32,000 bases of DNA from Candidatus Saccharimonadota bacterium (lineage in GTDB: Bacteria; Patescibacteriota; Saccharimonadia; Saccharimonadales; Saccharimonadaceae): positions 540,001-572,000 of the forward strand of contig MKSO01000001.1 of assembly GCA_001897305.1 (NCBI GenBank), read 5' to 3'. The notes under the pieces were generated by a model. It was not told the origin of the DNA. It did not search any database and saw only the letters and a list, made by a program, of their open reading frames with translations. Below, piece after piece: positions 11,228-30,948 of this stretch (positions are counted from its first letter, which is position 1; every line of letters starts with the position of its first letter). The position numbers and the translations under genes are program-made.

Positions 11228-11443
11228 ATGACACAGTACGAAGAATACGAAATGACAGAAGCAGATATTGATAAAACCATCAATTATCTTAAGACTCTTG
11301 GCTACGAGGACGCTACACCAGAAGATGCAATCGCCTACCTTGAAAGGCTTCAGGCAAAAGTTCACGCCGCCGGACACGTTCTGAGCGATGAAGAGATGCA
11401 GGAACTCTACAACGAGTTCTCGTCAGATTACAAAAAGAACTAG
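11228..11443 (+). CDS. Hypothetical small acidic protein (71 aa)
   Basis: ATG at 11228 is preceded by AGGAG (11214-11218). The track start at 11222 is TTG. No family recognised. Confidence 0.55.
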   Translation: MTQYEEYEMTEADIDKTINYLKTLGYEDATPEDAIAYLERLQAKVHAAGHVLSDEEMQELYNEFSSDYKKN

Positions 11444-13929: not shown

Positions 13930-14483
13930 TAGAGTTCTCCGATCTTATCGTGGATGAAGTTATAGGAAGCCGCCGAGGATGCGGCAAATGTTCGAGTGGA
14001 TACTACATTGATATGCGGAGCGTTCATCTCTGATATCGTCCATTGTCCAGAAAGAGGGTCAACAAAGCTCACGTAGGCCACGTGACCGAGTTCACTGCCG
14101 CCGTCAGTCTGGAAGATAGCCCCGATGCTTGGTGTGTGATCAACGAGGTATCCATCGCGCCTTGCGTAGTCGTCCCACGTATTAGCGTTGCCCCAACTCG
14201 TCGGAATCGGATCGTCTGCCCAAAAGCGCATAGCGTATGACCACCATGTACAGTTACCCCATGCGTAGGTATTGCCCGGAACGTCCGGCCCCATGTAGAA
14301 GCCTTGCTCCTCAGCGGATTCGGCACTCGGTTGTTGAGAGAGGTAGGTCGTCACATCCCTGCCCATCGCAAAGACTGCTACCACTGGCATCGACAATACA
14401 AACACGAGAACACATAAGGCAATCAAAGCGTACTTGCGGAGGTTTCCGCTAAAAAATAGTGACGCGATGATTGCCGGGTTCAT
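13929..14483 (-). CDS. CHAP/NlpC-P60-type peptidoglycan hydrolase (VirB1 functional analogue)
   Basis: N-terminal TM helix (YALIALCVLVFVLSMPVVAVFAM), then a Cys context GNCTWWSY and a His context GHVAYV with CHAP-like spacing. Its ATG overlaps the upstream gene's stop (ATGA). Confidence 0.8.
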   Translation of the reverse strand: MNPAIIASLFFSGNLRKYALIALCVLVFVLSMPVVAVFAMGRDVTTYLSQQPSAESAEEQGFYMGPDVPGNTYAWGNCTWWSYAMRFWADDPIPTSWGNANTWDDYARRDGYLVDHTPSIGAIFQTDGGSELGHVAYVSFVDPLSGQWTISEMNAPHINVVSTRTFAASSAASYNFIHDKIGEL

Positions 14484-16213
14484 CCGTATAGCTCCGTCGG
14501 ATTGGTGGTAATGAGCGGATGTTCTTTCTCACTGGCGACGACCTTCACCGCCACGTGATTCTGATCGGCGATAATCAGGGCATCACCCCGTTCGCAGGTC
14601 AGCAGGAAGCTCTCCTCATATTCAGACAGGTTGAACTCACTCGCCACATTCTTAATCGTCGTGGTGTCTTGTCGCATTAAGATACGGAGTGCCGATTGCG
14701 AAGCGATGGCACGGCCATAATCAGAGTGCAGGAAGTCGTTGGCTTGCTGAGAGATGATGGACACGCCGAGGTAGTATTTACGGGCGCGGCGTACTAGTCC
14801 CGCTACGAAGCGAGCTGACTCCTCGTGTTCGAGCAGTAACCAGCCCTCGTCGATAATCAGTAGTCGCTTTTCCGGCTTGGCCTTGACCTGATTCTGGACA
14901 AAGTTAGAGATGATGAGCATCATAATCTGACGGAGCGATTCCGGCAGGTCTTTGATGTCGAAGATCACCAGACGGTTCGAGAGGTCGATGTTAGTTTGGC
15001 TATTGAAGACACTCGCCAGTGATCCTGAGATGTACTTTTCCAGCCGTTCACAGAGTTTCAACTGTCCGAGTTTGTTCAGTTCGGCGTACAGGTCTTCAAG
15101 AAGCGGTTGTTCTTTCTTGGCGTTTTTGTAGATTTTAAGAATCGCTTTGTCCACCGCTGCTTTCTCACGAGAGTTCAACCCCTCGGCCATCAGGCTGATC
15201 ACTTCGGTCAGGTCTTGGACGTGTTCGGACAGGTCGTCGATATTGTGAAATGTCGTCGCTAAGTCGAACGGGTTAATCTTCTGCTTGCTCTTGGCGCTGA
15301 GTTTGACGTAGGTGCCATTGACCGATTCGGTGAGGCGTTTATACTCACGTTCCGGGTCAATGACGATAACTTTTGTCCCCTGCATAAGCTGGCGGAGTAT
15401 CTCCACTTTGGTCGTGTAGCTCTTACCAGATCCCGACTGAGCAAACGTGATGGAGTTGGCGTTCGGCAGCCCGAAGCGATCCAAAATCACCAGTGAATTG
15501 TTGGACTTATTGACTCCATAAAGGATGCCCGATTCTTGAACGAGTTCTGAACTCATGAACGGAAAGGTCAGTGCCGCCGAGCTACTGTCTAGGTTTCGCT
15601 TCTGGGCTAACTGGTCTTCGGCTCGCGGGAGGATGCTTTGCAAGGCTTCAATCTGCTGGTAACGAGCGACTTTGCTATAAAACAGACGCGCCGACAAGGT
15701 GGCTTCTAATAGTTTGGTCGTCTTATTGAGTTCTTCCAGACTATCGGCTCGAAGCGTGACGTAGATACTCATCTGGAACAACTTTTCCTGCCCACGCTGG
15801 ATTTTGTCGCGTAGTTCAATGGCCGATTCGAGTGGGTCAGTGACTTCCGATCCCACAATCTTACCGGCTCGGATCATCGCCCGCTTGGTGCTTTCCAGCT
15901 CAGTGATTTTGCGGTGCAGTTTCGGAAGTGCCAGCAGTGCGCTGACTTCCGTCACGTGATAGCTGATGTCGGTATCGTGGTTGAAGTTAATTAGACTATC
16001 CAGCCAGCCAGAGTTCGCCACGAACGGATAACCGTTGATGTAGAGTGTCCGGAGGAACACGCCGTCTAAGTTGATGTAGTCCGGCGTTTCTTCTAAGCTG
16101 GCATAGCTCATCACATCGAGCATATCCTGTTCACCGAATACCAGCTTCAGCTCTTTGGCCTTTAATTCTCTGGCTTCACGACGTTTTCTCATTGTTGCTA
16201 TCGGGCTATTCAT
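14480..16213 (-). CDS. VirB4-family T4SS ATPase, C-terminal ATPase part
   Basis: 577 aa. Walker A FAQSGSGKSYTT and Walker B RLLIIDEGWLLL. ATG at 16213 is preceded by AAGGAGAA and overlaps the upstream stop (ATGA). Confidence 0.9.
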   Translation of the reverse strand: MNSPIATMRKRREARELKAKELKLVFGEQDMLDVMSYASLEETPDYINLDGVFLRTLYINGYPFVANSGWLDSLINFNHDTDISYHVTEVSALLALPKLHRKITELESTKRAMIRAGKIVGSEVTDPLESAIELRDKIQRGQEKLFQMSIYVTLRADSLEELNKTTKLLEATLSARLFYSKVARYQQIEALQSILPRAEDQLAQKRNLDSSSAALTFPFMSSELVQESGILYGVNKSNNSLVILDRFGLPNANSITFAQSGSGKSYTTKVEILRQLMQGTKVIVIDPEREYKRLTESVNGTYVKLSAKSKQKINPFDLATTFHNIDDLSEHVQDLTEVISLMAEGLNSREKAAVDKAILKIYKNAKKEQPLLEDLYAELNKLGQLKLCERLEKYISGSLASVFNSQTNIDLSNRLVIFDIKDLPESLRQIMMLIISNFVQNQVKAKPEKRLLIIDEGWLLLEHEESARFVAGLVRRARKYYLGVSIISQQANDFLHSDYGRAIASQSALRILMRQDTTTIKNVASEFNLSEYEESFLLTCERGDALIIADQNHVAVKVVASEKEHPLITTNPTELYG

Positions 16214-16848
16214 ACTTGTTCTCCTTTCTCTATAAGTGCCGTGTGTATGGCGGATAAGGCGCGGTCGGTTAATGGTTGAATCTTCGCGGCCGTTGGGTTG
16301 TAGAAACTGTAGAACAGGTCGAGGGTTTCCAGACTACTTAACTGCCGTGCGCTCATACCCATCCGGTTCATACCTTTCATAACGATATCGGCGGTCAGCG
16401 CCAATTGCTCTTTGATGAGATCAAAGTCCTTACTGGTACTTTCATACGGCACGATGATATAAAAGTGCCGCGTCAGGATCTTGTTGCTCTGAATCAGTGA
16501 GCGGATGAACTCGTCGTAGTTTTGAAGCTGGTCGCGGTAGATGCGTTCGGTCTCGTTTTCTAGCCGAGCCGACAGGTCTTCAAGATATTTATCCATGTCG
16601 ATTTCGCGGGTACGGATAAGAATCTGGAGCTTGGTGCCGACGGAGTTCAGAAAACTCTCGTAGGTATCAATGATCGCATCCTGCTCGTCTTCGCTTTTTA
16701 ACTCGAAGTTGAGCGAGGATACTTCCAGCACCAGCCGATAGCCGTTGTTCGGTAGGAGCAAGATACCGTCCCGCACTCCCCTGATACCGATTTGCTGACG
16801 GGTCGTGCCGGTGCGTTTCGTCTTATTCTGTTTCTGAGATACGGACAT
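16210..16848 (-). CDS. VirB4 N-terminal-domain-like protein (separate ORF)
   Basis: The sequence IRGVRDGILLLPNNGYRLVLEVSSLNFELKSEDEQDAIIDTYESFLNSVGTKLQILIRT resembles the N-terminal domain of Gram-positive VirB4/TrsE/PrgJ-type ATPases. ATG at 16848 has a GGAGG 5 nt upstream. The track start at 16875 is TTG. Confidence 0.7.
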   Translation of the reverse strand: MSVSQKQNKTKRTGTTRQQIGIRGVRDGILLLPNNGYRLVLEVSSLNFELKSEDEQDAIIDTYESFLNSVGTKLQILIRTREIDMDKYLEDLSARLENETERIYRDQLQNYDEFIRSLIQSNKILTRHFYIIVPYESTSKDFDLIKEQLALTADIVMKGMNRMGMSARQLSSLETLDLFYSFYNPTAAKIQPLTDRALSAIHTALIEKGEQV

Positions 16849-17323
16849 TGAGTCCTCCTTTCTTGGTGGTTTCAAATTTCAACCGCCTAATCGGATCGTC
16901 CAGCTTGGTGTACAGGTACGCCCTTTGGGATGGGTCGAGTTTCGGTAGTGAGATAGGTTTCTTTTCTTTGGTGACAACCGCTTCCGTCTGCCTCACGACT
17001 TCCGGATAGTCTTCCCGGTGGAGCGTGGTGTTCTTGGTAAATAGGTAAAGCCGTGGCCGAGCATGGAACCGAAGCAGGACGAACAGCCATTGCAGTACGA
17101 TTTTTCCTTTGATGCGGATGGACAGACTGAGTGCAATCAGTGACACGATACCGATGATAACCAGTTTGTAGAGCATATAGCCCATACTCGGTGGAAGTGC
17201 GGCATACAGGAGCGACCCGCCGAACACCGGAACACAGAACAAAGCGATCTGAGAGAGCGACAGGTTACCGGTAATCTTGTCTTCAACGGTCGTGACCTGT
17301 GCGGGAACAACGGTTACTTTCAT
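16823..17323 (-). CDS. Small T4SS membrane protein, PrgI/VirB3-like
   Basis: 166 aa with two adjacent TM helices after an N-terminal V(V)PAQVTTVEDKITGNLSLSQ segment. It sits immediately upstream of VirB4, and its ATG overlaps the VirB6-like stop (ATGA). Confidence 0.55.
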   Translation of the reverse strand: MKVTVVPAQVTTVEDKITGNLSLSQIALFCVPVFGGSLLYAALPPSMGYMLYKLVIIGIVSLIALSLSIRIKGKIVLQWLFVLLRFHARPRLYLFTKNTTLHREDYPEVVRQTEAVVTKEKKPISLPKLDPSQRAYLYTKLDDPIRRLKFETTKKGGLNVRISETE

Positions 17324-18843
17324 GACGTTTTTCCTTTCTTGGTAGTTTTCGTGGCAGTCTTAGCCTTTGCGACTGTCGTACTGGTAGTAACGGGTTTCAC
17401 GGCAGTTCTTGGCGTAGCGTTGGCCGCGCCGACTTTCGGTGCTTTGGTAGTCGTGCCAGTCGGAGTACGTTTCGTGGCTTTAGTGGAAGTTCCTCCAACT
17501 ATCGGAGCTTTGGCCGTAGATTTCGGCTGGGTATAGCTTCCGCCGACGCTTGAGCCCTTCATCCCAGACGAACGAGTCAGTCCGGTGCTGGATTTACTGT
17601 CGCTTTGAAGCGCCCATGAAGCAGCTGCCCGACCTTTGCCCCCTAAGTAACTGATACCATTCATGAATTGTGTACCTAGCTGGCGGGTATTCCTCGCGCC
17701 CAGACTCACGTAGCTAAACTGCATCATCAGCCCCTGAGTTTTAAGCAGTGCGATGATCGTTGCGAGGCCTACCGCCATGCTCATGAGAACATTCGGCACA
17801 TCGTTTCCGGAAGTGCTGGATAATCCGACGAATAGTGAACCCGCTAAGGTCAGGATGACCACGTGGACGAATAGGACAAAGATGGTGGTGAGGTAGGTTT
17901 TCATCGCGGTTTCCGAAAAGTCTCGAAACCCCGGCACCAACCAGACTAGAATCACCAGTGGCGAGAGTACCGCTCCGATGTAGAGCGCAACCAAACGTCC
18001 GACGTAGTAGATAAGCAGAATGAACGAGAAGATCAGAAAGACCAGCATGATGAGCAGTGCCGCCAGCCCTTGACCGCCCGATTCTCCAACCACTTTTGTT
18101 AAGGTGTCCCAGACCCCGGCCGCCCCGCCGACTTGCCCGACTGCTGTGATGAGCGCGTTGCTTGCGGCGATGAACCCGTCGATGATGAATATCGAGGAAT
18201 TGAGCAGCACGAATACCAGTAGGATTCTTGGGAGCAGTTGCTTGAACTCAATCTCGTCCAGTCCGAACGTACTGGCACTCATAACGTGGAAACCGATCAG
18301 CGCCACCACGACCACGAAGAATACGTCGGTAATACCAACCATTGCCAACCAGAAGTTAAAGACGGCGGAGTTATCGGTCATGAGCGGAGTTGATTTGGTA
18401 AAGAACTCTAGCGCATCCAGAAATGGCGTAGCGATAGCTTGGATGATGAAACTCAGCACCCCGACGATAGCGTTTATCAAGATGTCGATCAGCCCGTTGC
18501 TCGGTGCTTCCGGCGTGATATCGTTCAGGCTCGGCAAGGCGGCGCTACTCGGTGCTTGCGTATGCGTCATCGCCCCGTTGAGAATGGCGGTCAGTGTGGC
18601 CGCTCCAATGACGATCACCACCCCGATAAGAGCGTTCTTCAACACCCGCTTGGCTTGATCCAGCTTTTCCGGCCGTCCGGTAGAAGTCATGTAAAGGATT
18701 CCGCCGTAGACGATAAAGAAGACACAAGCTAGACCAGCCAGTGCGGTTAAAGTCGTCATGGTCGGATTAACCCAGTCGCGCATCGCTTGGATGGCACCGG
18801 AAGTATCAGCCATGAGCGACAAACTCATGGTGAGAAAGTTCAT
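17320..18843 (-). CDS. VirB6/TrbL-like polytopic T4SS membrane protein with an N-terminal pilin-like module and a Lys/Thr-rich tail
   Basis: 507 aa with many TM segments. The N-terminal ~90 aa are paralogous to the adjacent pilin. The C-terminal ~100 aa are low-complexity (T/K/S/G/A). Confidence 0.7.
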   Translation of the reverse strand: MNFLTMSLSLMADTSGAIQAMRDWVNPTMTTLTALAGLACVFFIVYGGILYMTSTGRPEKLDQAKRVLKNALIGVVIVIGAATLTAILNGAMTHTQAPSSAALPSLNDITPEAPSNGLIDILINAIVGVLSFIIQAIATPFLDALEFFTKSTPLMTDNSAVFNFWLAMVGITDVFFVVVVALIGFHVMSASTFGLDEIEFKQLLPRILLVFVLLNSSIFIIDGFIAASNALITAVGQVGGAAGVWDTLTKVVGESGGQGLAALLIMLVFLIFSFILLIYYVGRLVALYIGAVLSPLVILVWLVPGFRDFSETAMKTYLTTIFVLFVHVVILTLAGSLFVGLSSTSGNDVPNVLMSMAVGLATIIALLKTQGLMMQFSYVSLGARNTRQLGTQFMNGISYLGGKGRAAASWALQSDSKSSTGLTRSSGMKGSSVGGSYTQPKSTAKAPIVGGTSTKATKRTPTGTTTKAPKVGAANATPRTAVKPVTTSTTVAKAKTATKTTKKGKTS

Positions 18844-18853
18844 GAGTTACCCC

Positions 18854-19198
18854 TTAACTCCCGAACGCGTTGGTCGCAACCGATACGATGATATTTGAAA
18901 TGACGAACGCCGCGATAACGATTGCCAGCCCGATCAAAGACCAGAGCAGTGTCCGCTTCGCCCTATCCAGGTGTTCCGGATTGCCGGAGCTGGTGATGTA
19001 GCCGAAACCGCCTACTACAATGAAGCCGGTAGCGACCAATCCCGCCAGACCCGCGATGACACTAATGATGGTGCGGATGAAGTTCTCTACATTATCCACA
19101 CCTGCGACATCTGCGGCCAATGCAGGTTGAGTCAGTACGACGAGCGACCCGACGGCGACGACACTGGCGACTATTTTGATGTTTGTCAGTTTGTTCAT
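18854..19198 (-). CDS. T4SS pilin (VirB2/TrbC-like, CPR/Gram-positive T4SS-pilin type)
   Basis: Signal-like N-terminus ending in ALAADVAG, followed by two TM helices flanking GGFGYITSSGNPEHLDRAKRTL. ATG at 19198 has a GGAGG 5 nt upstream (the track start at 19210 lies further upstream). Confidence 0.75.
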   Translation of the reverse strand: MNKLTNIKIVASVVAVGSLVVLTQPALAADVAGVDNVENFIRTIISVIAGLAGLVATGFIVVGGFGYITSSGNPEHLDRAKRTLLWSLIGLAIVIAAFVISNIIVSVATNAFGS

Positions 19199-19399
19199 AC
19201 AACCTCCCACGTTGCTTATTTTGATAACCTCATTGCCACCGTGAGCAGGTACGAATCACACTTATACCTGATGCCACTAAATCATCCGGAATGTCGGAAA
19301 ACAAGAACGCACTTAAAAGTAAGTAACTTACTAAAAGGTTAGTTACTATCTTCGAGGATAGTACCCATTTAACAGATATGGAAATGCTCAAAAACAACA

Positions 19400-20160: not shown

Positions 20161-20424
20161 ATGAAAACCCTACCACGTATCAACCCGTATAAAAAAGAGA
20201 TCGCCTACTCTATCGAGGAAGTTGCCAAGAAGCTCAGCTTATCACCAGAGGAAGTCGACGAGGCGGTTAATCAAGGACTGCTCCGGATGGTCTTCTTCGG
20301 CAAAGAGGAACGTATCCTCGCCGCCGATCTGACGGAGTACATCGAGAATATCCGCAAGTCTTCCTACCTGCCCGATTGGGAGGCTGCTGTCGCTGGCATC
20401 GGTCGCAAGAAGCGATCCCGCTAG
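20161..20424 (+). CDS. Small helix-turn-helix DNA-binding protein (excisionase/MerR-like HTH)
   Basis: 87 aa with a strong RBS (AAAGGAGG). YSIEEVAKKLSLSPEEVDEAVNQGLL fits an excisionase-type HTH, and the C-terminus is basic. Confidence 0.65.
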   Translation: MKTLPRINPYKKEIAYSIEEVAKKLSLSPEEVDEAVNQGLLRMVFFGKEERILAADLTEYIENIRKSSYLPDWEAAVAGIGRKKRSR

Positions 20425-20437
20425 TACCTAAAAAGCA

Positions 20438-20464
20438 AGCCGCCCGCGACTGAACCGGGCGGCT
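20438..20464. terminator. Bidirectional stem-loop terminator
   Basis: 9-bp GC-rich stem agccgcccg / cgggcggct with a 9-nt loop. It is followed by tttgtac on the + strand and by tgcttttt on the minus strand. Confidence 0.55.
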
Positions 20465-20614
20465 TTGTACTATTCGTCTTACTTTATAAAGTTTAAGAAA
20501 GGACTTTTTAGTAGTAAGACTGGTTATGCAGGTCGGATACTATATGGCACTGACGCAAGATCCGTAGACCTTGCATATCACGCCCCGACAGGTGTCGATC
20601 TGTCGAACTAGTAT

Positions 20615-20739
20615 ACCGGGCAACTCGGAAACCGATGTTCGTGTTCGAGTTCGACGCAGAATTGTTCAAATTGAGCGTCAAGACCCCGGCATTGGAGCCA
20701 TTGTTCCAATTGCCGCCGCGGATGAACGCGCGAGAAGCT
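20615..20739 (-). repeat. DGR template repeat (TR)
   Basis: It is 125 nt, with 114/125 identity to 22392-22516. Ten of the 11 mismatches fall where this copy has T on the + strand (A on the minus strand). In the target reading frame it is rich in AAY codons. Confidence 0.9.
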
Positions 20740-20760
20740 TCAGACCCGATAACCGTAACC

Positions 20761-20784
20761 AGTATATCGCTTTACGCTTATACT
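20761..20784. promoter_or_regulatory. Candidate back-to-back divergent -10 elements between TR and RT
   Basis: Inverted repeat AGTATA (20761-20766) - N12 - TATACT (20779-20784). It puts a TATACT hexamer on each strand, one facing the RT ATG (20793) and one facing the TR. The -35 matches are weak (3/6). Confidence 0.35.
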
Positions 20785-20792
20785 AGGAATAG

Positions 20793-21956
20793 ATGACGAT
20801 GTTAGATGCCACCGCTTTTGCTAAGATTGCTTCACTAGAGGCCTTAGCAAAAGCCCATAAAAAGGCGTTGATAGGAAAGCGCAACAGCCACTCGGCAACG
20901 GCCACCAACTTCCGCTTCATGAGTGATCTGCTTCAAATCCAGAGAGAATTGGTGTCCGGCTCGTACCGCCCGATGGATTATCGTCGCCGGATCATCCGTG
21001 AACCCAAAGTCCGGATGATTGAGGCTCCGGCCTTTCGGGACCGGATTGTTCACCACGCCATGCACGGCATTCTTAGCCCATTCTACGAACGTTCCTTTAT
21101 TCGTGATTCTTATGCATGTCGGCCAGATAAGGGAATCCACCGAGCAATGGCGAGGGTGCAACATTTCCTCAGAAGCGAACCGAACTTGTACGTCTGTAAA
21201 ATTGATATCTCCAAATACTACCCGTCGGTGAATCACGCTAAACTCCGTGAGCTGTTGCGTCGCAAGATAGATGATCCGAGGTTGCTCCGACTTTTGGATG
21301 TCATTATTGACAGTAGTGACAGCGGCGATGAACACGACTACCTATTCCCAACTGACTCCAACTACCATACAAAAGGTCGGCGCGGTATTCCTATCGGGAA
21401 CCTGACCTCCCAGCTCTTTGCCAATATTTATCTTCATGAGGCGGATATGTTTGCGAAGCAGTCGCTTCACGCCAAGTTCTACATCCGCTACATGGACGAC
21501 ATCCTGCTCTTTCATCAAGACAAAGCCGTTTTGCAAGAGTGGCAACGAAAGATCACGGCGTTTCTATACGATGAACTGTACTTGACGGTGAATCCGAGAA
21601 AAGTCCGCATCTATCCAAGTCGTCTGGGAGTCGACTTTGTCGGTTATATCATGTATCCGTATGGTAAACGGGTACGGGCATCGTCGCTCCGAAGATTCCG
21701 ACGGAAGTTCCACCGCAACCTCAAAGCCTACCATAAAGGCGCGGTCAGTGAACAACGGCTGGATGATATGGTGAACGCGTGGTCGGCTCATGTGAGGCAT
21801 GGGAGTGGTGAACCGCTCATTAAGCAAATCACCGAGGAGCTGGATTCCCACAAGTTCATTGCATTTGTCAGGAAGAAGCACCGCCAGAATTTACGGAGGC
21901 TCCGAAAGCCGACCCAATTGTCACTGCTCGACTTCGACGGCTCGGATAGTCGGTAG
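20793..21956 (+). CDS. DGR reverse transcriptase
   Basis: 387 aa. RT motifs include RMIEAP.FRDRIVHHA and YIRYMDDILLF (YxDD box). It also has the DGR-RT signature [I/L]GxxxSQ as IGNLTSQ. The TR is adjacent. Confidence 0.93.
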   Translation: MTMLDATAFAKIASLEALAKAHKKALIGKRNSHSATATNFRFMSDLLQIQRELVSGSYRPMDYRRRIIREPKVRMIEAPAFRDRIVHHAMHGILSPFYERSFIRDSYACRPDKGIHRAMARVQHFLRSEPNLYVCKIDISKYYPSVNHAKLRELLRRKIDDPRLLRLLDVIIDSSDSGDEHDYLFPTDSNYHTKGRRGIPIGNLTSQLFANIYLHEADMFAKQSLHAKFYIRYMDDILLFHQDKAVLQEWQRKITAFLYDELYLTVNPRKVRIYPSRLGVDFVGYIMYPYGKRVRASSLRRFRRKFHRNLKAYHKGAVSEQRLDDMVNAWSAHVRHGSGEPLIKQITEELDSHKFIAFVRKKHRQNLRRLRKPTQLSLLDFDGSDSR

Positions 21957-22307
21957 CCGTTTGTCGCGGGCTGTCTTGATCCACCCACCGGTCATCTTCC
22001 CTACTTCATCGATCCGCTTGGTGATGTGTCCGAGGCTTTTGGCACTAAGGAACTTCATCTCGAACCCAATCCGAAGTAGTCCTCGAAGTACTTCCAACTC
22101 CGTGTTCAGGTCATCCAGCTTCAAGAGTGTCTTCTCTGGATTTTTCAGATTGTTGGCTTGAATGATGAGCCGCAGACACGCGAGGGCGCTGGTTTCAATC
22201 TGTTGTCCCAGCACGAAGCGTTGTTTCTTCGGAAAGGTATTAACCTTATCGAAGATCCATTGCTGCACTTCGAGCATACGGGTGTAGATGATAAAATCCG
22301 GTTTCAT
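21921..22307 (-). CDS. Accessory variability determinant (Avd-like four-helix-bundle protein)
   Basis: 128 aa with a helical pattern: FPKKQRFVLGQQIETSALACLRLIIQAN...LDDLNTELEVLRGLLRIGFEMKFLS...GKMTGGW. This resembles the Avd / 23S-rRNA-IVS protein family. It lies directly downstream of the VR gene, and its 3' end overlaps the RT 3' end convergently by 36 nt. Confidence 0.8.
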   Translation of the reverse strand: MKPDFIIYTRMLEVQQWIFDKVNTFPKKQRFVLGQQIETSALACLRLIIQANNLKNPEKTLLKLDDLNTELEVLRGLLRIGFEMKFLSAKSLGHITKRIDEVGKMTGGWIKTARDKRLPTIRAVEVEQ

Positions 22308-22389
22308 GGGTGCATAGAGGAAGAAAAGATTAAAGATTTAATGTTGTAAGAACTAAGAGTTCAAGAGACAAAAGCTAGGGTCGGGAGTA

Positions 22390-23397
22390 TCACCGGGCAA
22401 CTCGGAAACCGATGTGCGCGTTCGAGTACGACGCAGAATTGCTCAAATAGAGCGCCAAGACCCCGGCATTGGAGCCATAGTTCCAAGGGCCGCCGCGGCG
22501 GAACGCGCGAGAAGCTGAGTCCGCATAGTTCGCGTAAATCTGCCCAACACCCTTACCAGCTCCCCAAGTAATACCAGAAAGACTGACGTTATTGACCGGG
22601 TTTGTCCAACCGTTTAAGGTTGCTGGCTTACTGACGTTTGCTAAGTTGCCGAGACTCAGTGAACCAAGCGTGTAGTCGCGCCAGTTGAATGCTGAGTCGC
22701 CAGAGACACCGACGTTGCTCATAGTGAGTGTTGGTGTACCAATGGCTTGCTGTGTCCATTCCCACACATTACCAGAGAAGTCCCAAATTGCGTCGCCAGA
22801 TGAAAGGTACAGTACGCGAGAGCTGTTATTGCCGGAGTTGGTTCCGATACCACCGGTCATGCCATTCAGGTTGTCGGTATCATCGTCCGAAGCCGCCAAC
22901 GCGCTTCCTGGGTTGTTGTTTACGTGACCCTGATAGATGATTCCGGAGTTCACGCTGCCACCAGACCAGTTCTGTTTCATCGAGAGTACATCAGCCGCAA
23001 TCGTCATCCATTCCGCCTCGGTCAGCAGGTGCCCGCCAGCATTGGTAGACTGCGTAATCGCATCCGTTTGTGTGATCGAGACCCACGGCGCACCGGAAGC
23101 CTGTGAGGTAGCCACGCCACTGACGTTCTTGGCTTCGTACTTCATGACACAGAACGGCGAGGTACCGAGTGTGGAATTGCCGTAGACAAATGAGTAACCA
23201 GCGGGACAATCGTCGATGCCGTTCTGGGCGCGGTAGACAGCAGCCTTTGTTTGGAGTTGCTTGATATCTGCGGTCAGGGCAGCCTTGTTGGCGTTCTGAG
23301 TGATGCCGGTGTACGCCACGATGGTAATCGCCGCAAGAATACCAATCACCACGATGACGATCAGGAGTTCGACGATAGTAAAACCGCGACGATTCAT
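22390..23397 (-). CDS. DGR target protein: type IV prepilin-like N-terminus plus FGE-sulfatase/C-type-lectin-like domain ending in the VR
   Basis: 335 aa. The N-terminus MNRRG|FTIVELLIVIVVIGILAAITIVAY is a class III signal (Gly-1, Phe+1, Glu+5). FGE/SUMF-type blocks are present: HLLTEAEWMTIA, GNVWEWTQ, and RGGPWNYG...GFRVAR at the C-terminus. Confidence 0.9.
   Translation of the reverse strand: MNRRGFTIVELLIVIVVIGILAAITIVAYTGITQNANKAALTADIKQLQTKAAVYRAQNGIDDCPAGYSFVYGNSTLGTSPFCVMKYEAKNVSGVATSQASGAPWVSITQTDAITQSTNAGGHLLTEAEWMTIAADVLSMKQNWSGGSVNSGIIYQGHVNNNPGSALAASDDDTDNLNGMTGGIGTNSGNNSSRVLYLSSGDAIWDFSGNVWEWTQQAIGTPTLTMSNVGVSGDSAFNWRDYTLGSLSLGNLANVSKPATLNGWTNPVNNVSLSGITWGAGKGVGQIYANYADSASRAFRRGGPWNYGSNAGVLALYLSNSASYSNAHIGFRVAR
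22392..22516 (-). repeat. DGR variable repeat (VR), last ~41 codons of the target gene
   Basis: It is the counterpart of the TR and ends 2 nt before the TGA stop. Codon changes TR to VR: ATC>CGC, AAT>CCT, AAT>TAT, ACG>GCG, AAT>TAT, AAC>AGC, AAC>TAC, ACG>GCG, AAC>CAC. Confidence 0.9.
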
Positions 23398-23434: not shown

Positions 23435-23458
23435 AGAGAGAGAGAGAGAGAGAGAGAG
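23435..23458. repeat. (AG)12 dinucleotide microsatellite ((CT)12 on the gene strand)
   Basis: Twelve perfect AG units counted directly. The tract lies 37 nt upstream of the target-gene ATG (23397), within its promoter or 5' leader. Confidence 0.95.
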
Positions 23459-23671: not shown

Positions 23672-24853
23672 TTATGGCTTCTGGCGTTTCATCTGTTTGA
23701 CCAGCATTTGATGTATGGCATACGTGAGGGCATTGTCCTCGTATACGAACCCCTCGCGGTTGAACGGGCTTTCTGGTGGCTCCCCTGCCTCCACATGCTT
23801 TTCCCAAACAAGCTCGTCCGTATAGTCAGTAATGCCTAACGCCTGTTTGATAATCTTCTGCATCCCAATCCCAAAAACGAGCAGGGCAATATCAAGGTGT
23901 CTTTGCTTATCGAGGAAGTTGTAGTCATCGGACTTAATCTTGTCACCGTGAATAATTGCGCTTCTCAGTTCATAAAACCTATCAGCCCACATCACCTTGA
24001 TACTTTCATGTTCCCAAACAGCTGGTGCTCTACCGCGAGAACTTTTATAACGACGCTTCGGATCACTCGGCAGAACAAACATGCTATTCATTGTGTTCTT
24101 CAAGTGTTCCCTTTGTCGAGAGTCCGGAATATCAAACAGGGTTTCAAGTGCGCTAGACATCGACAAGACTCGTTGAGATTCTGGAATCTTATCATCATTA
24201 TAATAAGCCTGAACGACAACCTCGATAGCCTGTATGATGCGTCGATACAGTTTCTTGTTCTTCCTATAAAGGCGGGCTAATAGTCCCAAGGTATCATCGT
24301 CAATATTAAATGACATCGGTGACATCACCTGCTGTGGTCGCCGGAAGATCATATCACCCAGCTTGTAGCCCATATCATTCTTCTGGATGATGGACCCGCC
24401 TCGGATACCGAAGTGATCGTCTTGCGTACTGAAGCCCTGCCACACCATATCGAAGTTCTCCGACACAACCATTCGGTGACCTCGGTTTACGTCCGTCAGG
24501 ATTTTTAGGTTCCATACCAACGCACCAGCGAACAGGCGGAGCCTTGCCTCTCGTGCCAGTTTCCGTTCACTGTCGGTATATTCTCGAAAATCTATATCAC
24601 CAACACTGATAATGCCCATATCTGAAATTGCCTCATCGGCTAGTGTACCCATACCCTGAAAGACGTAGTGAACGTTGCTCCCCATGATTGTATCCAGCCT
24701 CGCAAGTACATCCGGATCGGTGATGTAGGCATTCTTCATCAAACCGTAGTTCCAAATCTTAACAGTAAGGTCTGGGAAGTTGACCTCATTCACATCTTTC
24801 ATATTTAGGTAGGGGATGTAGTTGACCTGCATTTCTAGAATCCTAACTGCCAT
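23672..24853 (-). CDS. Hypothetical protein B of an unknown two-gene cassette; C-terminal HEPN-like domain
   Basis: The track start at 24874 is GTG. ATGs at 24853 and 24832 are alternatives; 24832 lies 2 nt after the stop of the upstream ORF. The C-terminal helical region contains SSALETLF...ADRFYELRSAIIHGDK (R-x4-H at 23948-23965). No Walker motif. Confidence 0.75.
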   Translation of the reverse strand: MAVRILEMQVNYIPYLNMKDVNEVNFPDLTVKIWNYGLMKNAYITDPDVLARLDTIMGSNVHYVFQGMGTLADEAISDMGIISVGDIDFREYTDSERKLAREARLRLFAGALVWNLKILTDVNRGHRMVVSENFDMVWQGFSTQDDHFGIRGGSIIQKNDMGYKLGDMIFRRPQQVMSPMSFNIDDDTLGLLARLYRKNKKLYRRIIQAIEVVVQAYYNDDKIPESQRVLSMSSALETLFDIPDSRQREHLKNTMNSMFVLPSDPKRRYKSSRGRAPAVWEHESIKVMWADRFYELRSAIIHGDKIKSDDYNFLDKQRHLDIALLVFGIGMQKIIKQALGITDYTDELVWEKHVEAGEPPESPFNREGFVYEDNALTYAIHQMLVKQMKRQKP

Positions 24854-26370
24854 CGTATCGTCAGCCTGTTCCACTCCGAGAACGTGTCACTTGTTGGGTG
24901 ATTATCTTTTGGAGGGGGTGGCATGTTCGTCAAGTTAGCCGCCTGGACATGGCTCAGTTTCTCAACCGGTGTCGCTCGCATAAGATCATTGACTAGTATC
25001 ACTACCTCCTCGAATAGCTTGTCTACCAGCGTCGCTGGATTGACTTCGTTGAGATTAGCACCGAGGGGCTTCACTCCCCACGCGTCGCGTCCGCCGAGTG
25101 CGTCCATCGAAAGCAAGATATCCGCTTCGTCGTCTTTCGGCAGCCCGAGGATGGTTTCTGTCTTGTTGCCGCTCTGTTTGGTGATGCCTTTGATTGCTTC
25201 ACCGTGGATAGAATTTCGTAGCTTGGTCAGAACGGTAAGCCGATGAGCATTATCGCTCCCCTTTGCCACGGCCGCCGCAAGATTGGCATCCAGCTTCGCA
25301 ACGTCCTTTATCCAGTCTCGTTGCCATGCCGCATTATGTGCTTTGGCCGGATTCATACCGAGGACATAATGTGCCACCCTCGCACTAGCATCAATCGCTC
25401 CCATCAAGGTCATCAAGGTATTGTCGAACGTGCCGAGTACGTCATCATTGATGTCGTTGTTGGTCTTGGAGTTGATGCCGATATGAATCTGGTCCCGTAG
25501 TTCGAGCGATCGTTGCATCCGGCTCATCACCGCACTAGCCAAGTACATCAGCTTATCGTCTTTCGTTCCGGACGAGTGGTGGACGCAAGCCGAAAACCAA
25601 CGCCACGTTTCGGGTACTAACTCGCGCATCCCAACCCAATAGAACATTCCCCTATTTAAATGGTAGCGGAATTTCTTTTGACCAGTCGGAATAATGAACT
25701 CACGTTGCGCCCGCAAATATAAAGAAACAGCCGAGATCGCATCGTCTGGTTGGCAAATAGTTATTGCCCGACCAGCTGCAATACGCCGTGACGGTGCGTA
25801 GAGATAAGGGCGGGTGGTGATATAGATATCAGCATCAATACAGTCGTCGGCGACTTGGACGGCAATCGCATCGGCTTGTCTTTTATCGGCCGCGTCATCA
25901 CCAGTGTAAGTCTTATCAGTAGCGTCGTCCCTTGCTGCAGTGTACAGGTCACCCATAACGCCAGAGTAAGATGCGTTCTTGTCGTCGAGTGCATAGGTCA
26001 CCGGACATAAACCGTTTGACTTTTGTGGGTATAGGACTGCATATCCCTCGTAGGTTGGTTCGATGTTCGGGTTGCCTGTTTCGATTGGCTCGACCGATGC
26101 CGGTGGAGTTTCGGTGTAGCGGTATAGTTCAATCAAGTCGTTATAGAGGAGGCTTCTCAGCAACAGCCCTTTCGTCGGAGTGCCTCGCATGTCCGAAGTG
26201 GTCGATTCATCGAACAGCTCACTATCGATCATGACGCGAAGTTTGCGGAATGGAGCGCGGCGGTCGAACACACTGTCTGTTCTATCTGGCGATTCTGGCC
26301 ATACAGCATTACGCCACATGGCGTTCTTGGCCGTCTTGTTAAACTGCGTCACTCCCATAATATCTTCCAT
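24835..26370 (-). CDS. Hypothetical protein A of an unknown two-gene cassette; HEPN-like R-x3-H motifs
   Basis: 511 aa, ATG at 26370. The C-terminal half is helical and carries LELRDQIHIG and TKLRNSIHGEA (25204-25218). No NTPase or other motif that I recognise. Confidence 0.8.
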   Translation of the reverse strand: MEDIMGVTQFNKTAKNAMWRNAVWPESPDRTDSVFDRRAPFRKLRVMIDSELFDESTTSDMRGTPTKGLLLRSLLYNDLIELYRYTETPPASVEPIETGNPNIEPTYEGYAVLYPQKSNGLCPVTYALDDKNASYSGVMGDLYTAARDDATDKTYTGDDAADKRQADAIAVQVADDCIDADIYITTRPYLYAPSRRIAAGRAITICQPDDAISAVSLYLRAQREFIIPTGQKKFRYHLNRGMFYWVGMRELVPETWRWFSACVHHSSGTKDDKLMYLASAVMSRMQRSLELRDQIHIGINSKTNNDINDDVLGTFDNTLMTLMGAIDASARVAHYVLGMNPAKAHNAAWQRDWIKDVAKLDANLAAAVAKGSDNAHRLTVLTKLRNSIHGEAIKGITKQSGNKTETILGLPKDDEADILLSMDALGGRDAWGVKPLGANLNEVNPATLVDKLFEEVVILVNDLMRATPVEKLSHVQAANLTNMPPPPKDNHPTSDTFSEWNRLTIRWQLGF

Positions 26371-29010: not shown

Positions 29011-29190
29011 TATGTCACGACCAAAAGGCAGTAAGAATGTTAATCCACCAGCCGTACCAGACACGGTGAATTTCACGACCGAAGAACGCCTGACTTTTAT
29101 TGCTACCCTCATCGTCGAACGCATTATTGAAGATATAAAAAACGAACAACCACTCTTAAAAAAGATAGGACAAGGTGATGCAACCAACTA
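29011..29190 (+). CDS. Hypothetical 59-aa protein immediately upstream of the recombinase
   Basis: ATG at 29011 is preceded by GGAGGG. The N-terminus is basic (SRPKGSKN). Its 3' end overlaps the recombinase start. Confidence 0.5.
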
Positions 29191-30908
29191 ACGGACAGAC
29201 GCTCCGTACACTACTCGCCGTCCGTGTTTCAACGGTCGGACAAGGTATTGATGGCGACTCGCCGGAAGCTCAGATCGAGCAAGGCGAACGCTACGCGCCG
29301 CTTCACAATATGCGGATCGTGATGACACTCCAATATCTTGAGTCTGCATCCAAAGAACAGCAACCGATGCAGGAGGTTATTAACTACTGCAAGCGTCATA
29401 AGGGCGAGATCGATGTCGTCCTTATTAAATCAATTGACCGCTTCACCCGTGCCGGTTCGACCGTCTACGACCAGCTCAAAGCCCAGCTTGAACCGCTCGG
29501 CGTGACGCTTGTCGATATGTACGGTATTATTAGCACTCAAAAAGTGAACACGCTTGAACACCTCGGCCAAGAATATAAATGGAGTGTCTACTCCCCTACT
29601 CGTAAAACAGAGCTTCTAGAGGCAGAACGTGCCAAAGATGAGGTGCGTGATATCTTGAGCCGTATGATCGGCTCAGAAATCCGTTATACGCAACTCGGCT
29701 ATTGGTCGCGTGGCGCTCGGTTCGGCTATAAGACCGAGAAGATAGAAACCGTCAACGGTAAACGAGCAATTCTTGTACCAGACGGGGATAAGGCCGACAT
29801 TATCCGTATGATGTTTGAAGAACGTGCGGCGGCCGTCTTAAATGACCACGAGATTGCCGAAAAGATGAATGATATGGGATTTGAAACCCCTATTAAAATC
29901 GTACGTGACAAACGGGATAGAACTCGGATCGTCAGCAGGACTGGCGGGAAGAAGATAACCGCCAAGCTACTACGAACATATGTCAAACAAACAATCTATG
30001 CCGGTGTAAATACTGAGAAATGGACAGGCGGCGTGCCAGTGAAGTGTAAGTTCGATGGCCTCGTTTCGATGGAATTATTCAACAAAGCCAATCGAGGCAA
30101 AGTAACGCTCCGTAACAATCCTGACGATATGGATCACCCAATCGTTGAATACGCTAAGAAAGATGAGCGGTTTGTTAAGAAGAATCACCAGAACCCCGAC
30201 TACCCATACAAAAAAGTAGTCACCTGTCCACATTGTCGCAGACCGCTTCTTGGAAGTGCCTCACGGGGCAGACTAGGTAAATACTACGCGGCTTATCACT
30301 GTAGCAATCACGGGCACCACTTCCGCGTACGCAAGGATGAGTTTGAGGGTACAATCGATACGTTCATAAAAACGGTCACAATGCGTCCTGAGCGCGTTGA
30401 GGAGCTGATGCAAGCCGTTATGACCGTCTATGAGCAACGGCAAGGTCAGAAAGTGAAAGCCGAGGAACTAGTTGATAAACGACGCTCCGAGCTTGAAGCG
30501 GAAATCAAAGTCATCGTAGACAAGATGAAGCTGATCAGCTCGGAAACCGCCATTAAATACCTAGAGGAGGACTTATTAAAGCTAGAACGAGAGATTAGCA
30601 ATCTAGACAACCAGAAACAGCAAGAAGCAGCCAAAGATACGGTCGATGTTCCAACGATGTTGACATACGTCAAATACTTTATGGAACACATCAAAGAGCT
30701 ACTCGTTGACCACTGTAATCCAATCAAAAAAGCGCAGTATTTCGGCGTATTATTCGATGAGGTTGCAACTTACGAGGAAATAAAAGCTGGCACCGCTGAA
30801 ATAGAAAAAATCCCAGGGGTGAACGAGCTATTTAAGCTTGCAAACTCCAAGGAAGTTTCATTGGTGCGGATAAGAGGACTTGAACCTCCACGCCCTTGCG
30901 GGCACTAG
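29178..30908 (+). CDS. Large serine recombinase (integrase of the element)
   Basis: Resolvase-type N-terminus LLAVRVSTVGQ (putative Ser nucleophile) and VLIKSIDRFTRAG. It has a recombinase domain, a Cys-rich zinc ribbon (CPHCRRPLLGS...YYAAYHCSNHGH) and a long coiled coil. The track start at 29175 is GTG; the ATG is at 29178. Confidence 0.9.
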   Translation: MQPTNGQTLRTLLAVRVSTVGQGIDGDSPEAQIEQGERYAPLHNMRIVMTLQYLESASKEQQPMQEVINYCKRHKGEIDVVLIKSIDRFTRAGSTVYDQLKAQLEPLGVTLVDMYGIISTQKVNTLEHLGQEYKWSVYSPTRKTELLEAERAKDEVRDILSRMIGSEIRYTQLGYWSRGARFGYKTEKIETVNGKRAILVPDGDKADIIRMMFEERAAAVLNDHEIAEKMNDMGFETPIKIVRDKRDRTRIVSRTGGKKITAKLLRTYVKQTIYAGVNTEKWTGGVPVKCKFDGLVSMELFNKANRGKVTLRNNPDDMDHPIVEYAKKDERFVKKNHQNPDYPYKKVVTCPHCRRPLLGSASRGRLGKYYAAYHCSNHGHHFRVRKDEFEGTIDTFIKTVTMRPERVEELMQAVMTVYEQRQGQKVKAEELVDKRRSELEAEIKVIVDKMKLISSETAIKYLEEDLLKLEREISNLDNQKQQEAAKDTVDVPTMLTYVKYFMEHIKELLVDHCNPIKKAQYFGVLFDEVATYEEIKAGTAEIEKIPGVNELFKLANSKEVSLVRIRGLEPPRPCGH

Positions 30909-30948
30909 CACCTGAAGCTAGCGCGTCTACCAATTCCGCCACATCCGC
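30862..30948 (-). tRNA. tRNA-Leu (anticodon CAG), class II with long variable arm, CCA encoded
   Basis: Hand-folded cloverleaf. Acceptor GCGGATG/TATCCGC; anticodon stem CTAGC/GCTAG with loop TTCAGGT; variable arm GCCC-GCAA-GGGC; T-loop GGTTCAAGTCC; 3' ACCA. Confidence 0.9.

Follow-up and report, generated by a model that had tools for sequence, protein, structure and literature searches.

A complete and active diversity-generating retroelement (DGR) is very probably present in the genome of a Candidatus Saccharimonadota bacterium (Saccharibacteria), in which an RNA of about 320 nucleotides (nt), transcribed from the minus strand and lying head-to-head with the gene for the reverse transcriptase (RT), would serve the diversification of a pilus-borne adhesin. 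The element was found in a stretch of 32,000 nt (assembly GCA_001897305.1, contig MKSO01000001.1, positions 540,001 to 572,000), which in its entirety is called the window here and from whose first letter all positions are counted. A preliminary description of this DNA had proposed a complete DGR at 20615-23397, comprising a template repeat (TR), an RT, the accessory protein Avd, and a target gene bearing a variable repeat (VR). The proposal is supported, since a DGR-type RT, Avd, the TR, and a VR within a C-terminal lectin fold were each confirmed independently. Of the proposed span, the four components stand and the start does not: the TR lies within a separate structured RNA gene, and the element therefore reaches about 185 nt further, to about 20430.

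To our knowledge, DGRs are the only natural means of targeted protein hypermutation in prokaryotes. Bacteria of the candidate phyla radiation (CPR) are rich in them, yet very few of their targets have an assignable function. The target described here can be read: a diversified lectin head is borne on a type IV pilin stalk. Type IV pili have been reported in Saccharibacteria, where they mediate host binding (PMC12206443). By means of such pili, cultured members find and hold their bacterial hosts; a DGR directed at a pilin-lectin protein offers a concrete and testable hypothesis for host-range adaptation in an obligate epibiont. The target protein is already in GenBank as a hypothetical protein, and the element may therefore already sit in a catalogue.

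The template and variable repeats

A repeat search of the window gave two direct copies of 125 nt (TR and VR in Table 1), spaced by 1777 nt and 91% identical, and no third copy. Base-by-base re-alignment at this fixed offset reproduced the 114 identities in 125 positions of the preliminary description, as well as its distribution of mismatches: ten of the eleven fall where the copy at 20615 has T on the plus strand, that is, adenine on the minus strand, and the remaining one falls at A. Substitution has therefore affected 10 of 26 such positions against 1 of the 99 others (Fisher exact p=2.9e-7). In the frame of the minus-strand open reading frame (ORF) 22390-23397, nine codons differ between TR and VR, exactly as had been listed: ATC to CGC, AAT to CCT, AAT to TAT (twice), ACG to GCG (twice), AAC to AGC, AAC to TAC, and AAC to CAC. 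The TR codons hit by substitution are thus AAY, ACG or ATC only.

At the 3' end of the repeats the terminal 24 nt of TR and VR are alike, although three adenines lie within them. Directly after these shared 24 nt, a 1-nt indel distinguishes the VR (GGTGATACT, in which the stop codon is embedded) from the TR (GGT-ATACT); in its shorter form the junction reads GGTGATAC in the VR and GGT-ATAC, or GGGATA in some relatives, in the TR. When this single indel is allowed, homology runs 5-6 nt beyond the stop codon (20610-20614 and 22386-22391). A comparable 1-nt junction difference is seen in most of the aligned relatives, with flanking bases that are not alike in some. This 3' boundary would act as the site for initiation of mutagenic homing (IMH).

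The only mismatch outside the adenines (T to G) separates ATC in the TR (20722-20724) from CGC in the VR (22499-22501), an exchange of Ile for Arg in the 5'-most variable codon. The same codon state recurs in 8 of 13 VR variants of the lineage and, independently, in locus L010 (ATT to CGT; related loci are designated by L numbers). The simplest reading is that this is probably an old, ancestral difference, situated where rewriting has its 5' boundary; alternatively, there may have been selection for Arg, or misincorporation at a non-adenine beside an A.

The TR region at 20626-20723 shows a 78% nucleotide match to RT-adjacent regions of the Aeromonas phages phiARM81mr and phiWae15, and the TR/VR scaffold of the lectin fold is evidently conserved at the DNA level across very distant DGRs.

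Diversification within the lineage

The 90% cluster that includes the target has 19 sequences, and its 13 full-length members were compared. Among them are 10 distinct VR peptides. All 14 variable columns of the VR lie at TR codons that contain adenine (there are 15 such codons), and the other 294 residues of the protein contribute 11 variable columns, mostly singletons. At the nucleotide level, 25 of the 26 TR adenines vary in the VRs (Fisher p=3e-17); ten VR columns vary at non-adenine positions, nine of them private to the divergent pair L101/L102. Five other contigs of the lineage have a TR identical to that of the window, and their VRs occur in at least four versions. Variation was thus found to be confined to TR-adenine positions rather than evenly spread, and two related lineages, each with identical RT and TR, show the same preference, with 24 of 30 and 15 of 17 variable VR columns at TR adenines. 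In nature the VR continues to undergo adenine-specific diversification, and the TR does not vary.

These data bear on the possibility that the locus is a decayed or frozen remnant whose RT or RNA no longer functions in this genome. Such a remnant would account for the VR shared by the window and its 99% twin contig L001, and decay does occur in the group, as L101 has lost the TR and most of the RT gene. Yet the ORFs for RT, Avd and target are intact and retain every invariant residue, base pairing in the 3' spacer RNA is preserved, and one and the same TR accompanies the several VRs just described; this explanation is very unlikely.

Contig L101 (positions 1-1750; logan SRR28413660_18529) encodes a target 94% identical to that of the window and has kept avd, and retains only the last ~74 codons of the RT. 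Homology ends after this remnant, no TR is present, and the VR carries nine private non-adenine differences; its GC content is Saccharibacteria-like. It represents either a lineage with a disrupted DGR or a chimera of assembly.

The reverse transcriptase and Avd

Among solved structures, the RT is most closely related to bRT from the Bordetella phage BPP-1 (8ub7, E=2.6e-46, with an alignment of nearly full length), as against 3e-23 for the best group II intron RT. The motifs IPIGNLTSQ and YMDD, of which IGNLTSQ and YMDD had been picked out earlier, are both present and are invariant in 31 homologs. The closest relatives (49-76% identity) are, without exception, from metagenome-assembled genomes (MAGs) of Saccharibacteria, and homologs at 37-47% identity flank canonical A-biased TR/VR pairs in 45 loci. 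Membership of the DGR clade, with its I/LGxxxSQ and YxDD motifs, is supported by these comparisons, the class assignment being based on E-values, motifs and homolog neighbourhoods.

Searches with the NCBIfam and PADLOC libraries gave only sub-threshold matches for the RT, to group II, Drt and UG-type models, and these might be taken to indicate an RT of the group II intron, retron or defence-associated class standing beside an ordinary duplication of a gene end. The matches are sub-threshold because neither library holds a DGR-specific RT model, and they lie far below the curated cutoffs (146 bits against 300 for group II). Since bRT leads the other solved relatives by 23 orders of magnitude in E-value, both the mismatches (p=3e-7) and the population variation are adenine-specific, and a curated DGR Avd is present, the view that this is not a DGR at all is scarcely credible.

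The Avd-like protein that had been placed between target and RT is encoded by an ORF scoring above the curated NCBI cutoff for DGR Avd proteins (Table 1). By ORF coordinates, avd converges on the RT gene with an overlap of 36 nt, and the overlap recurs in relatives.

The target protein

The target begins with MNRRG/FTIVELLIV, a class III signal peptide with G at -1, F at +1 and E at +5 that leads into a hydrophobic helix. Profile searches returned N_methyl PF07963 (29.4 against a cutoff of 21.2), TIGR02532 (29.4 against 16.3) and an FGE-sulfatase domain, and residues 2-58, roughly the first 60, align with pilins in the PDB. An AlphaFold (AF2) model, built with 46 homologs and having a predicted local distance difference test (pLDDT) score of 93.4, consists of an N-terminal helix of about 50 residues (8-58) and a globular domain. 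In a Foldseek search this domain matched best the DGR variable proteins TaqVP, Mtd and TvpA, together with formylglycine-generating enzymes (FGE). The VR occupies the 3' end of the coding gene, within the lectin fold, and the template adenines lie mainly at codon positions 1 and 2. In the target, a C-type-lectin domain of the DGR type is joined to the N-terminus of a type IV pilin, and the protein would be built into a pilus.

Some 40 nt upstream of the target start codon, and not a component of the DGR, there is a (TC)11 dinucleotide tract ((GA)11 on the other strand). In relatives (L001, L002, L004, L095-L101) its length is 9, 11, 13, 14, 15, 16 or 17 units, and it differs even between contigs whose target proteins are identical (13 in L095 and 11 in L096; 16 in L099 and 17 in L100). 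This suggests a slipped-strand change of expression, either phase-variable or graded, superimposed on the sequence change brought about by the DGR; an error of assembly is also possible.

Orientation and promoter of the template RNA

The TR adenines lie on the minus strand, which is also that of target and avd; the RT is encoded on the plus strand, and a distance of 53 nt separates the end of the TR from the start codon of the RT, in a head-to-head arrangement. In all 14 related metagenomic loci, over a range of RT identity from 99% down to 56%, the TR is likewise antisense to the RT. Among loci from reference genomes (GTDB) with a callable TR/VR pair, the TR is antisense in 12 of 57 and on the RT strand in the other 45. 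The twelve comprise eight labelled Saccharibacteria, two other Patescibacteria/Parcubacteria MAGs, one unassigned bacterial MAG, and one labelled Gammaproteobacteria. In a rough neighbour-joining tree of the RTs, which is without support values, the Saccharibacteria loci form one clade and two further antisense pairs fall elsewhere; the placement of L058 in this tree is meaningless, its RT translation being frame-broken (15 stops). Occurrence of TR and RT on different strands is explicitly noted in Wu et al. 2018. As judged from these loci, the head-to-head layout of RNA and RT is conserved across a clade of Saccharibacteria.

At a fixed distance of about 25 nt on the 5' side of the TR there is a TATA(C/A)T box, invariant or nearly so in relatives, which would be the promoter of the DGR RNA. 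It might be argued instead that the TR RNA lacks its own promoter, and arises by read-through of a target-avd transcript that continues antisense through the RT gene. In favour of this are the common minus-strand location of target, avd and TR in the window, the lack of any terminator-like site called on that strand from avd to the TR, and the convergent 36-nt overlap of RT and avd, which makes antisense transcription through the RT gene plausible. Against this stand the conserved spacing of the box, and the fact that the leader strand of the duplex enclosing the TR starts right after it. More tellingly, avd and target lie on the RT strand in L023-L025, as does avd in L058, and the TR RNA is there still divergent from the RT; read-through is therefore not the general source of the RNA, and as an explanation it is improbable, though less so than a decayed remnant.

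A second TATACT, on the plus strand at about 20779-20784, lies only ~8 nt before the ATG of the RT, and in L007 a palindrome is formed by the overlap of the minus- and plus-strand -10-like boxes. The arrangement suggests divergent promoters that overlap, and an RT mRNA with a very short leader or none.

Structure of the DGR RNA

Among relatives, about 185 nt of the 3' flank of the TR are conserved on the minus strand. Analysis with RNAalifold and explicit counting of pairs gave 40 pairs outside the TR (Table 1), of which 93.8% are maintained as pairs across the alignment and 23 show compensatory changes. None of 500 column shuffles reached the observed values, and slid controls gave 37-44% paired with 6-9 compensatory pairs. 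Read as a plus-strand RNA, the same positions are 83.4% paired; and G-U cells (52) far outnumber C-A cells (6), so that the fold suits a minus-strand transcript better. The duplex between leader and spacer (helices 1-2) comprises 10 pairs, 4 of them with compensatory changes, and is 88-94% paired. Directly after the TR, 8 of 11 relatives have a hairpin at the same place, unrelated in sequence, the exceptions being L012, L018 and L058; by its position, this stem-loop may be the analog of the Avd-binding stem-loop of the BPP-1 RNA. Terminator-like sites were called on the minus strand at 20451-20435, in the region of the terminal hairpin H5, and the U-run that follows H5 is missing in some relatives; H5 appears terminator-like, and may in addition bind a protein.

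With a covariance model of the 3' flank the RNA was detected, antisense to the RT, in all loci of the Saccharibacteria type, including those on which the model had not been trained (L016, 109 bits; L019, 86; L022, 35; L020, 25.5). Three weak matches were found on the plus strand. Two of them, in L060 and L055 (E ~0.06), lie directly 3' of same-strand TRs, in other words at the canonical position of the spacer, and the third is in L050, a locus without a callable TR. An Rfam scan of 20300-22600 gave no match at E<=1. The comparative evidence supports a TR embedded in a structured RNA with an enclosing duplex, stem-loops and 3' adenosines. As a compact and separate gene, with a promoter-like box, a structure backed by covariation, and a terminal hairpin, it could serve comparative work on the recognition of RNA by RT and Avd.

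Table 1. Positions of the features of the DGR and its surroundings (window coordinates)
Feature	Position	Strand	Remarks
DGR RNA gene (5' leader, TR, structured 3' spacer), ~320 nt (predicted)	20430-20754	-	Transcribed away from RT; conserved in 11 aligned relatives
Terminal hairpin H5 (20438-20464), then U-run	20430-20464	-	Variable stem, conserved loop GGUUCAGUC; 9 pairs, 8 compensatory, 100% paired
Hairpin H4 (20476-20520), then conserved A-rich GACGAAUAGUA	20467-20520	-	6 pairs, 3 compensatory
3' strand of long-range duplex, GACCUGCAUAACC	20522-20534	-	Follows the single-stranded block
Conserved single-stranded block AUAUAGUAUCCG	20535-20545	-	
Hairpin H3 of 3' spacer	20546-20584	-	15 pairs, 8 compensatory, 96.3% paired
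Stem-loop CGACAG...CUGUCG	20586-20605	-	Directly 3' of TR; positional analog of Avd-binding stem-loop
Template repeat (TR)	20615-20739	-	26 A on minus strand; 100% identical in five other contigs of the lineage with differing VRs
5' leader strand GGTTATCGGGTC of long-range duplex enclosing TR	20743-20754	-	Pairs with 20522-20534
-10-like box TATACT, putative promoter of DGR RNA	20761-20766	-	Between TR and RT start codon
DGR reverse transcriptase, 387 aa	20793-21956	+	RVT_1 E=3.6e-22; closest solved relative bRT
Avd accessory protein, 128 aa	21921-22307	-	bAvd PF22296 E=3.8e-24; NF033474 DivGenRetAVD 88.1 bits (cutoff 80)
Variable repeat (VR)	22392-22516	-	Final 41 codons of target; last 24 nt unsubstituted (IMH-like)
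Target gene, 335 aa	22390-23397	-	Type IV prepilin N-terminus, long alpha-1 helix, C-type-lectin/FGE-like domain
(TC)11 dinucleotide tract	23436-23457	-	Upstream of target start codon

A model of the mode of action can be put together from these features by analogy with BPP-1. A non-coding RNA of about 320 nt would be made from the minus strand, with the 125-nt TR set between a short 5' leader and a structured 3' spacer of about 185 nt. The RT and Avd, encoded on the plus and minus strands, respectively, would each have a transcript of its own, and the proteins would bind to this RNA in trans. Together, the stem-loops of the spacer and the leader:spacer duplex may then position the RNA for self-primed synthesis of complementary DNA (cDNA), in the course of which the template adenines would be copied unfaithfully. 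The likely benefit would be a rapid change in the binding of the adhesin to its presumed ligand, in an organism that lives attached to other bacteria.

Several observations weigh against the reading of the locus as a complete, active DGR with its own RNA gene and a pilus-borne target. The window contains no genes for assembly of a type IV pilus. There is also no GC-rich hairpin or cruciform 3' of the VR in the window, the 90 nt after the VR folding no better (-5.6 kcal/mol) than shuffled sequence (-5.9+-2.1 kcal/mol); according to Wu et al. 2018, such an inverted repeat follows the VR in only ~34% of DGRs and is not obligatory. A generic promoter scan did not call the -10-like box, so that its function, like the predicted start and end of the RNA, is deduced solely from conservation. 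A predicted template:primer duplex, between the 3' end of the TR and the conserved block AUAGUAUCCGG, does not surpass shuffled controls: its pairing energy is only about one standard deviation better than that of shuffles in most relatives, and in L058 it is worse. Finally, the window shares its VR with L001 and its VR peptide with Candidatus Saccharibacteria bacterium 47-87, so that the demonstration of activity holds for the lineage and not for this single genome.

Comparison with known systems

DGRs are well known in CPR bacteria, and the present element follows the mode of the prototype, the DGR of BPP-1 (mtd-avd-TR-brt), showing every defining feature that can be tested in silico. The two have the same four parts and the same adenine-specific flow of information from TR to VR; the RT aligns over its full length with bRT, the Avd proteins are homologous, and in both cases the VR makes up the C-terminal face of a C-type-lectin fold, that of Mtd in BPP-1. 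The RNA of the BPP-1 DGR, as seen by cryo-electron microscopy, has an Avd-binding stem-loop after the TR, a duplex between upstream and spacer sequences termed the 'cPRT Stop', a stem-loop with unpaired adenosines, and another RT-binding stem-loop (bioRxiv 10.1101/2023.10.23.563531). Around the TR of the present element, the leader:spacer duplex, the stem-loops and the A-rich segment follow in the same order as the cPRT Stop and the binding stem-loops. The leader strand at 20743-20754 is the analog of the upstream strand of the cPRT Stop, and H4 with its A-rich segment resembles the stem-loop and unpaired adenosines of that element. The differences lie in arrangement and host. In BPP-1 all parts are on one strand, with the spacer between TR and brt, whereas here the unit of leader, TR and spacer is inverted and diverges from the RT, and the avd gene runs towards that of the RT with an overlap; the host is cellular rather than a phage, the target is a pilin and not a tail fibre, and a GC-rich hairpin after the VR is absent.

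With the DGRs of CPR bacteria and Patescibacteria (Wu et al. 2018, CPR set; Roux et al. 2021, DGR clade 2) the element shares its host phylum, its location on a cellular chromosome, and a single adjacent target. It differs in gene order, which is (TR)-RT-(avd)-(target) here and TR-(avd)-RT (type B3) in 90% of that CPR set, and in its target, which is clearly a pilin with a lectin domain where few targets of that set were assigned to any family, both according to Wu et al. 2018. The best structural matches of the globular domain are TaqVP of Thermus aquaticus (5vf4, E=5e-10) and TvpA of Treponema denticola (2y3c, E=3e-3), which have the same FGE-like C-type-lectin fold with a C-terminal VR; identity is only 12-19%, and neither has a type IV prepilin N-terminus. 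DGR targets of the pilin type (GspG-type) have been mentioned only as rare (PMC11661182). In Bacteroides, too, a DGR is aimed at an adhesive pilus component, as described in a report on type V pilus adhesins (bioRxiv 10.1101/2024.11.15.621889), but type V pili are unrelated to type IV pilins, and the present case concerns Saccharibacteria and a link to a type IV secretion system (T4SS) island. The head-to-head RNA gene, the pilin-lectin target and the T4SS linkage are traits at the level of the clade, and leave the known mechanism of DGRs unchanged.

Genomic context

The first ~10 kb of the window carry housekeeping genes (rpoB, clpP, tig, hisS). They are followed, at ~10700-30950, by a T4SS island that encodes a PLD-like nuclease, a VirD4-like coupling protein, a CHAP hydrolase, a VirB4-like ATPase, PrgI, TrbL, a VirB2-like pilin, HxlR and an HTH_17 protein; then come the DGR, two genes of unknown function, DUF3768, Replic_Relax and a serine recombinase. 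The conjugative T4SS genes, including TrbL/VirB6, lie at 11440-19210. The only relaxase candidate is the Replic_Relax protein (PF13814, 33.5 bits, the cutoff being 25.3); a recent survey of Patescibacteria T4SS, in which DGRs are not mentioned, describes canonical MOB relaxases as rare in CPR T4SS clusters. At the end of the island the serine recombinase gene (29175-30908) abuts a tRNA-Leu gene (30862-30948). No att-like direct repeats bounding the island were found, the only candidate being a stretch of 24 nt that repeats part of the 5' end of tRNA-Leu at a distance of 108 nt. In its gene content the island looks like an integrative conjugative element. Linkage of DGR and T4SS recurs in L004, L005, L007/8 and L012-15. 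There was no sign of a prophage at the locus, a phage database giving only weak RT and TR matches to DGRs of Vibrio and Aeromonas phages.

It is tempting to relate this linkage to a known switch of adhesins. In the shufflon of the IncI1 plasmid R64, site-specific DNA inversion among a few cassettes switches the C-terminal end of PilV, the adhesin of the thin pilus. The Patescibacteria T4SS survey mentions that the type IV pilus of R64 has a role in the formation of mating pairs. As a functional analogy only, both cases would combine a conjugative element with an adhesin of the type IV pilin type, a variable C-terminus, and a choice of partner cell; they differ in that R64 relies on DNA inversion and not on reverse transcription, and in that a functional link between pilin and T4SS is here hypothetical. 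On a tentative view, which is rather doubtful as a whole, the T4SS island would have the pilin-lectin protein as its adhesin for partner recognition, and DGR and (TC)n tract would form a switch of two layers, one deciding what is bound and the other whether the adhesin is made, so that the cell or the conjugative element could be retargeted to the surfaces of new hosts or recipients. The system would then be the retroelement counterpart, in an obligate epibiont, of the R64 shufflon, with the TR-spacer RNA as a trans-acting DGR RNA gene typical of the clade.

Beside the target, two overlapping minus-strand ORFs, 23672-24874 (400 aa) and 24835-26370 (511 aa), have no match in Pfam, NCBIfam or PADLOC. 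Relatives have genes of similar size at this position, mostly without detectable similarity, one counterpart showing a weak match to HEPN_Cthe2314. The two genes were considered as components of the DGR and rejected, as they match no family and their sequence is not conserved with the DGR; 23672-26370 may be a variable slot for cargo or defence genes.

Some pilin-lectin homologs are labelled Microbacterium or Leucobacter (L103; P0142, P0161, P0172, P0232), which are Actinobacteria and known hosts of Saccharibacteria, and for this reason transfer into an actinobacterial host was considered. L103 (GCA_040687075.1, Leucobacter sp. NPDC077196), with a GC content of 0.57, encodes a target homolog of 65% identity and has no RT, avd or TR; a T4SS coupling protein gene and a Replic_Relax gene are nearby. 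It could be a contig of the epibiont in an assembly of its host, or else a related conjugative element residing in the host.

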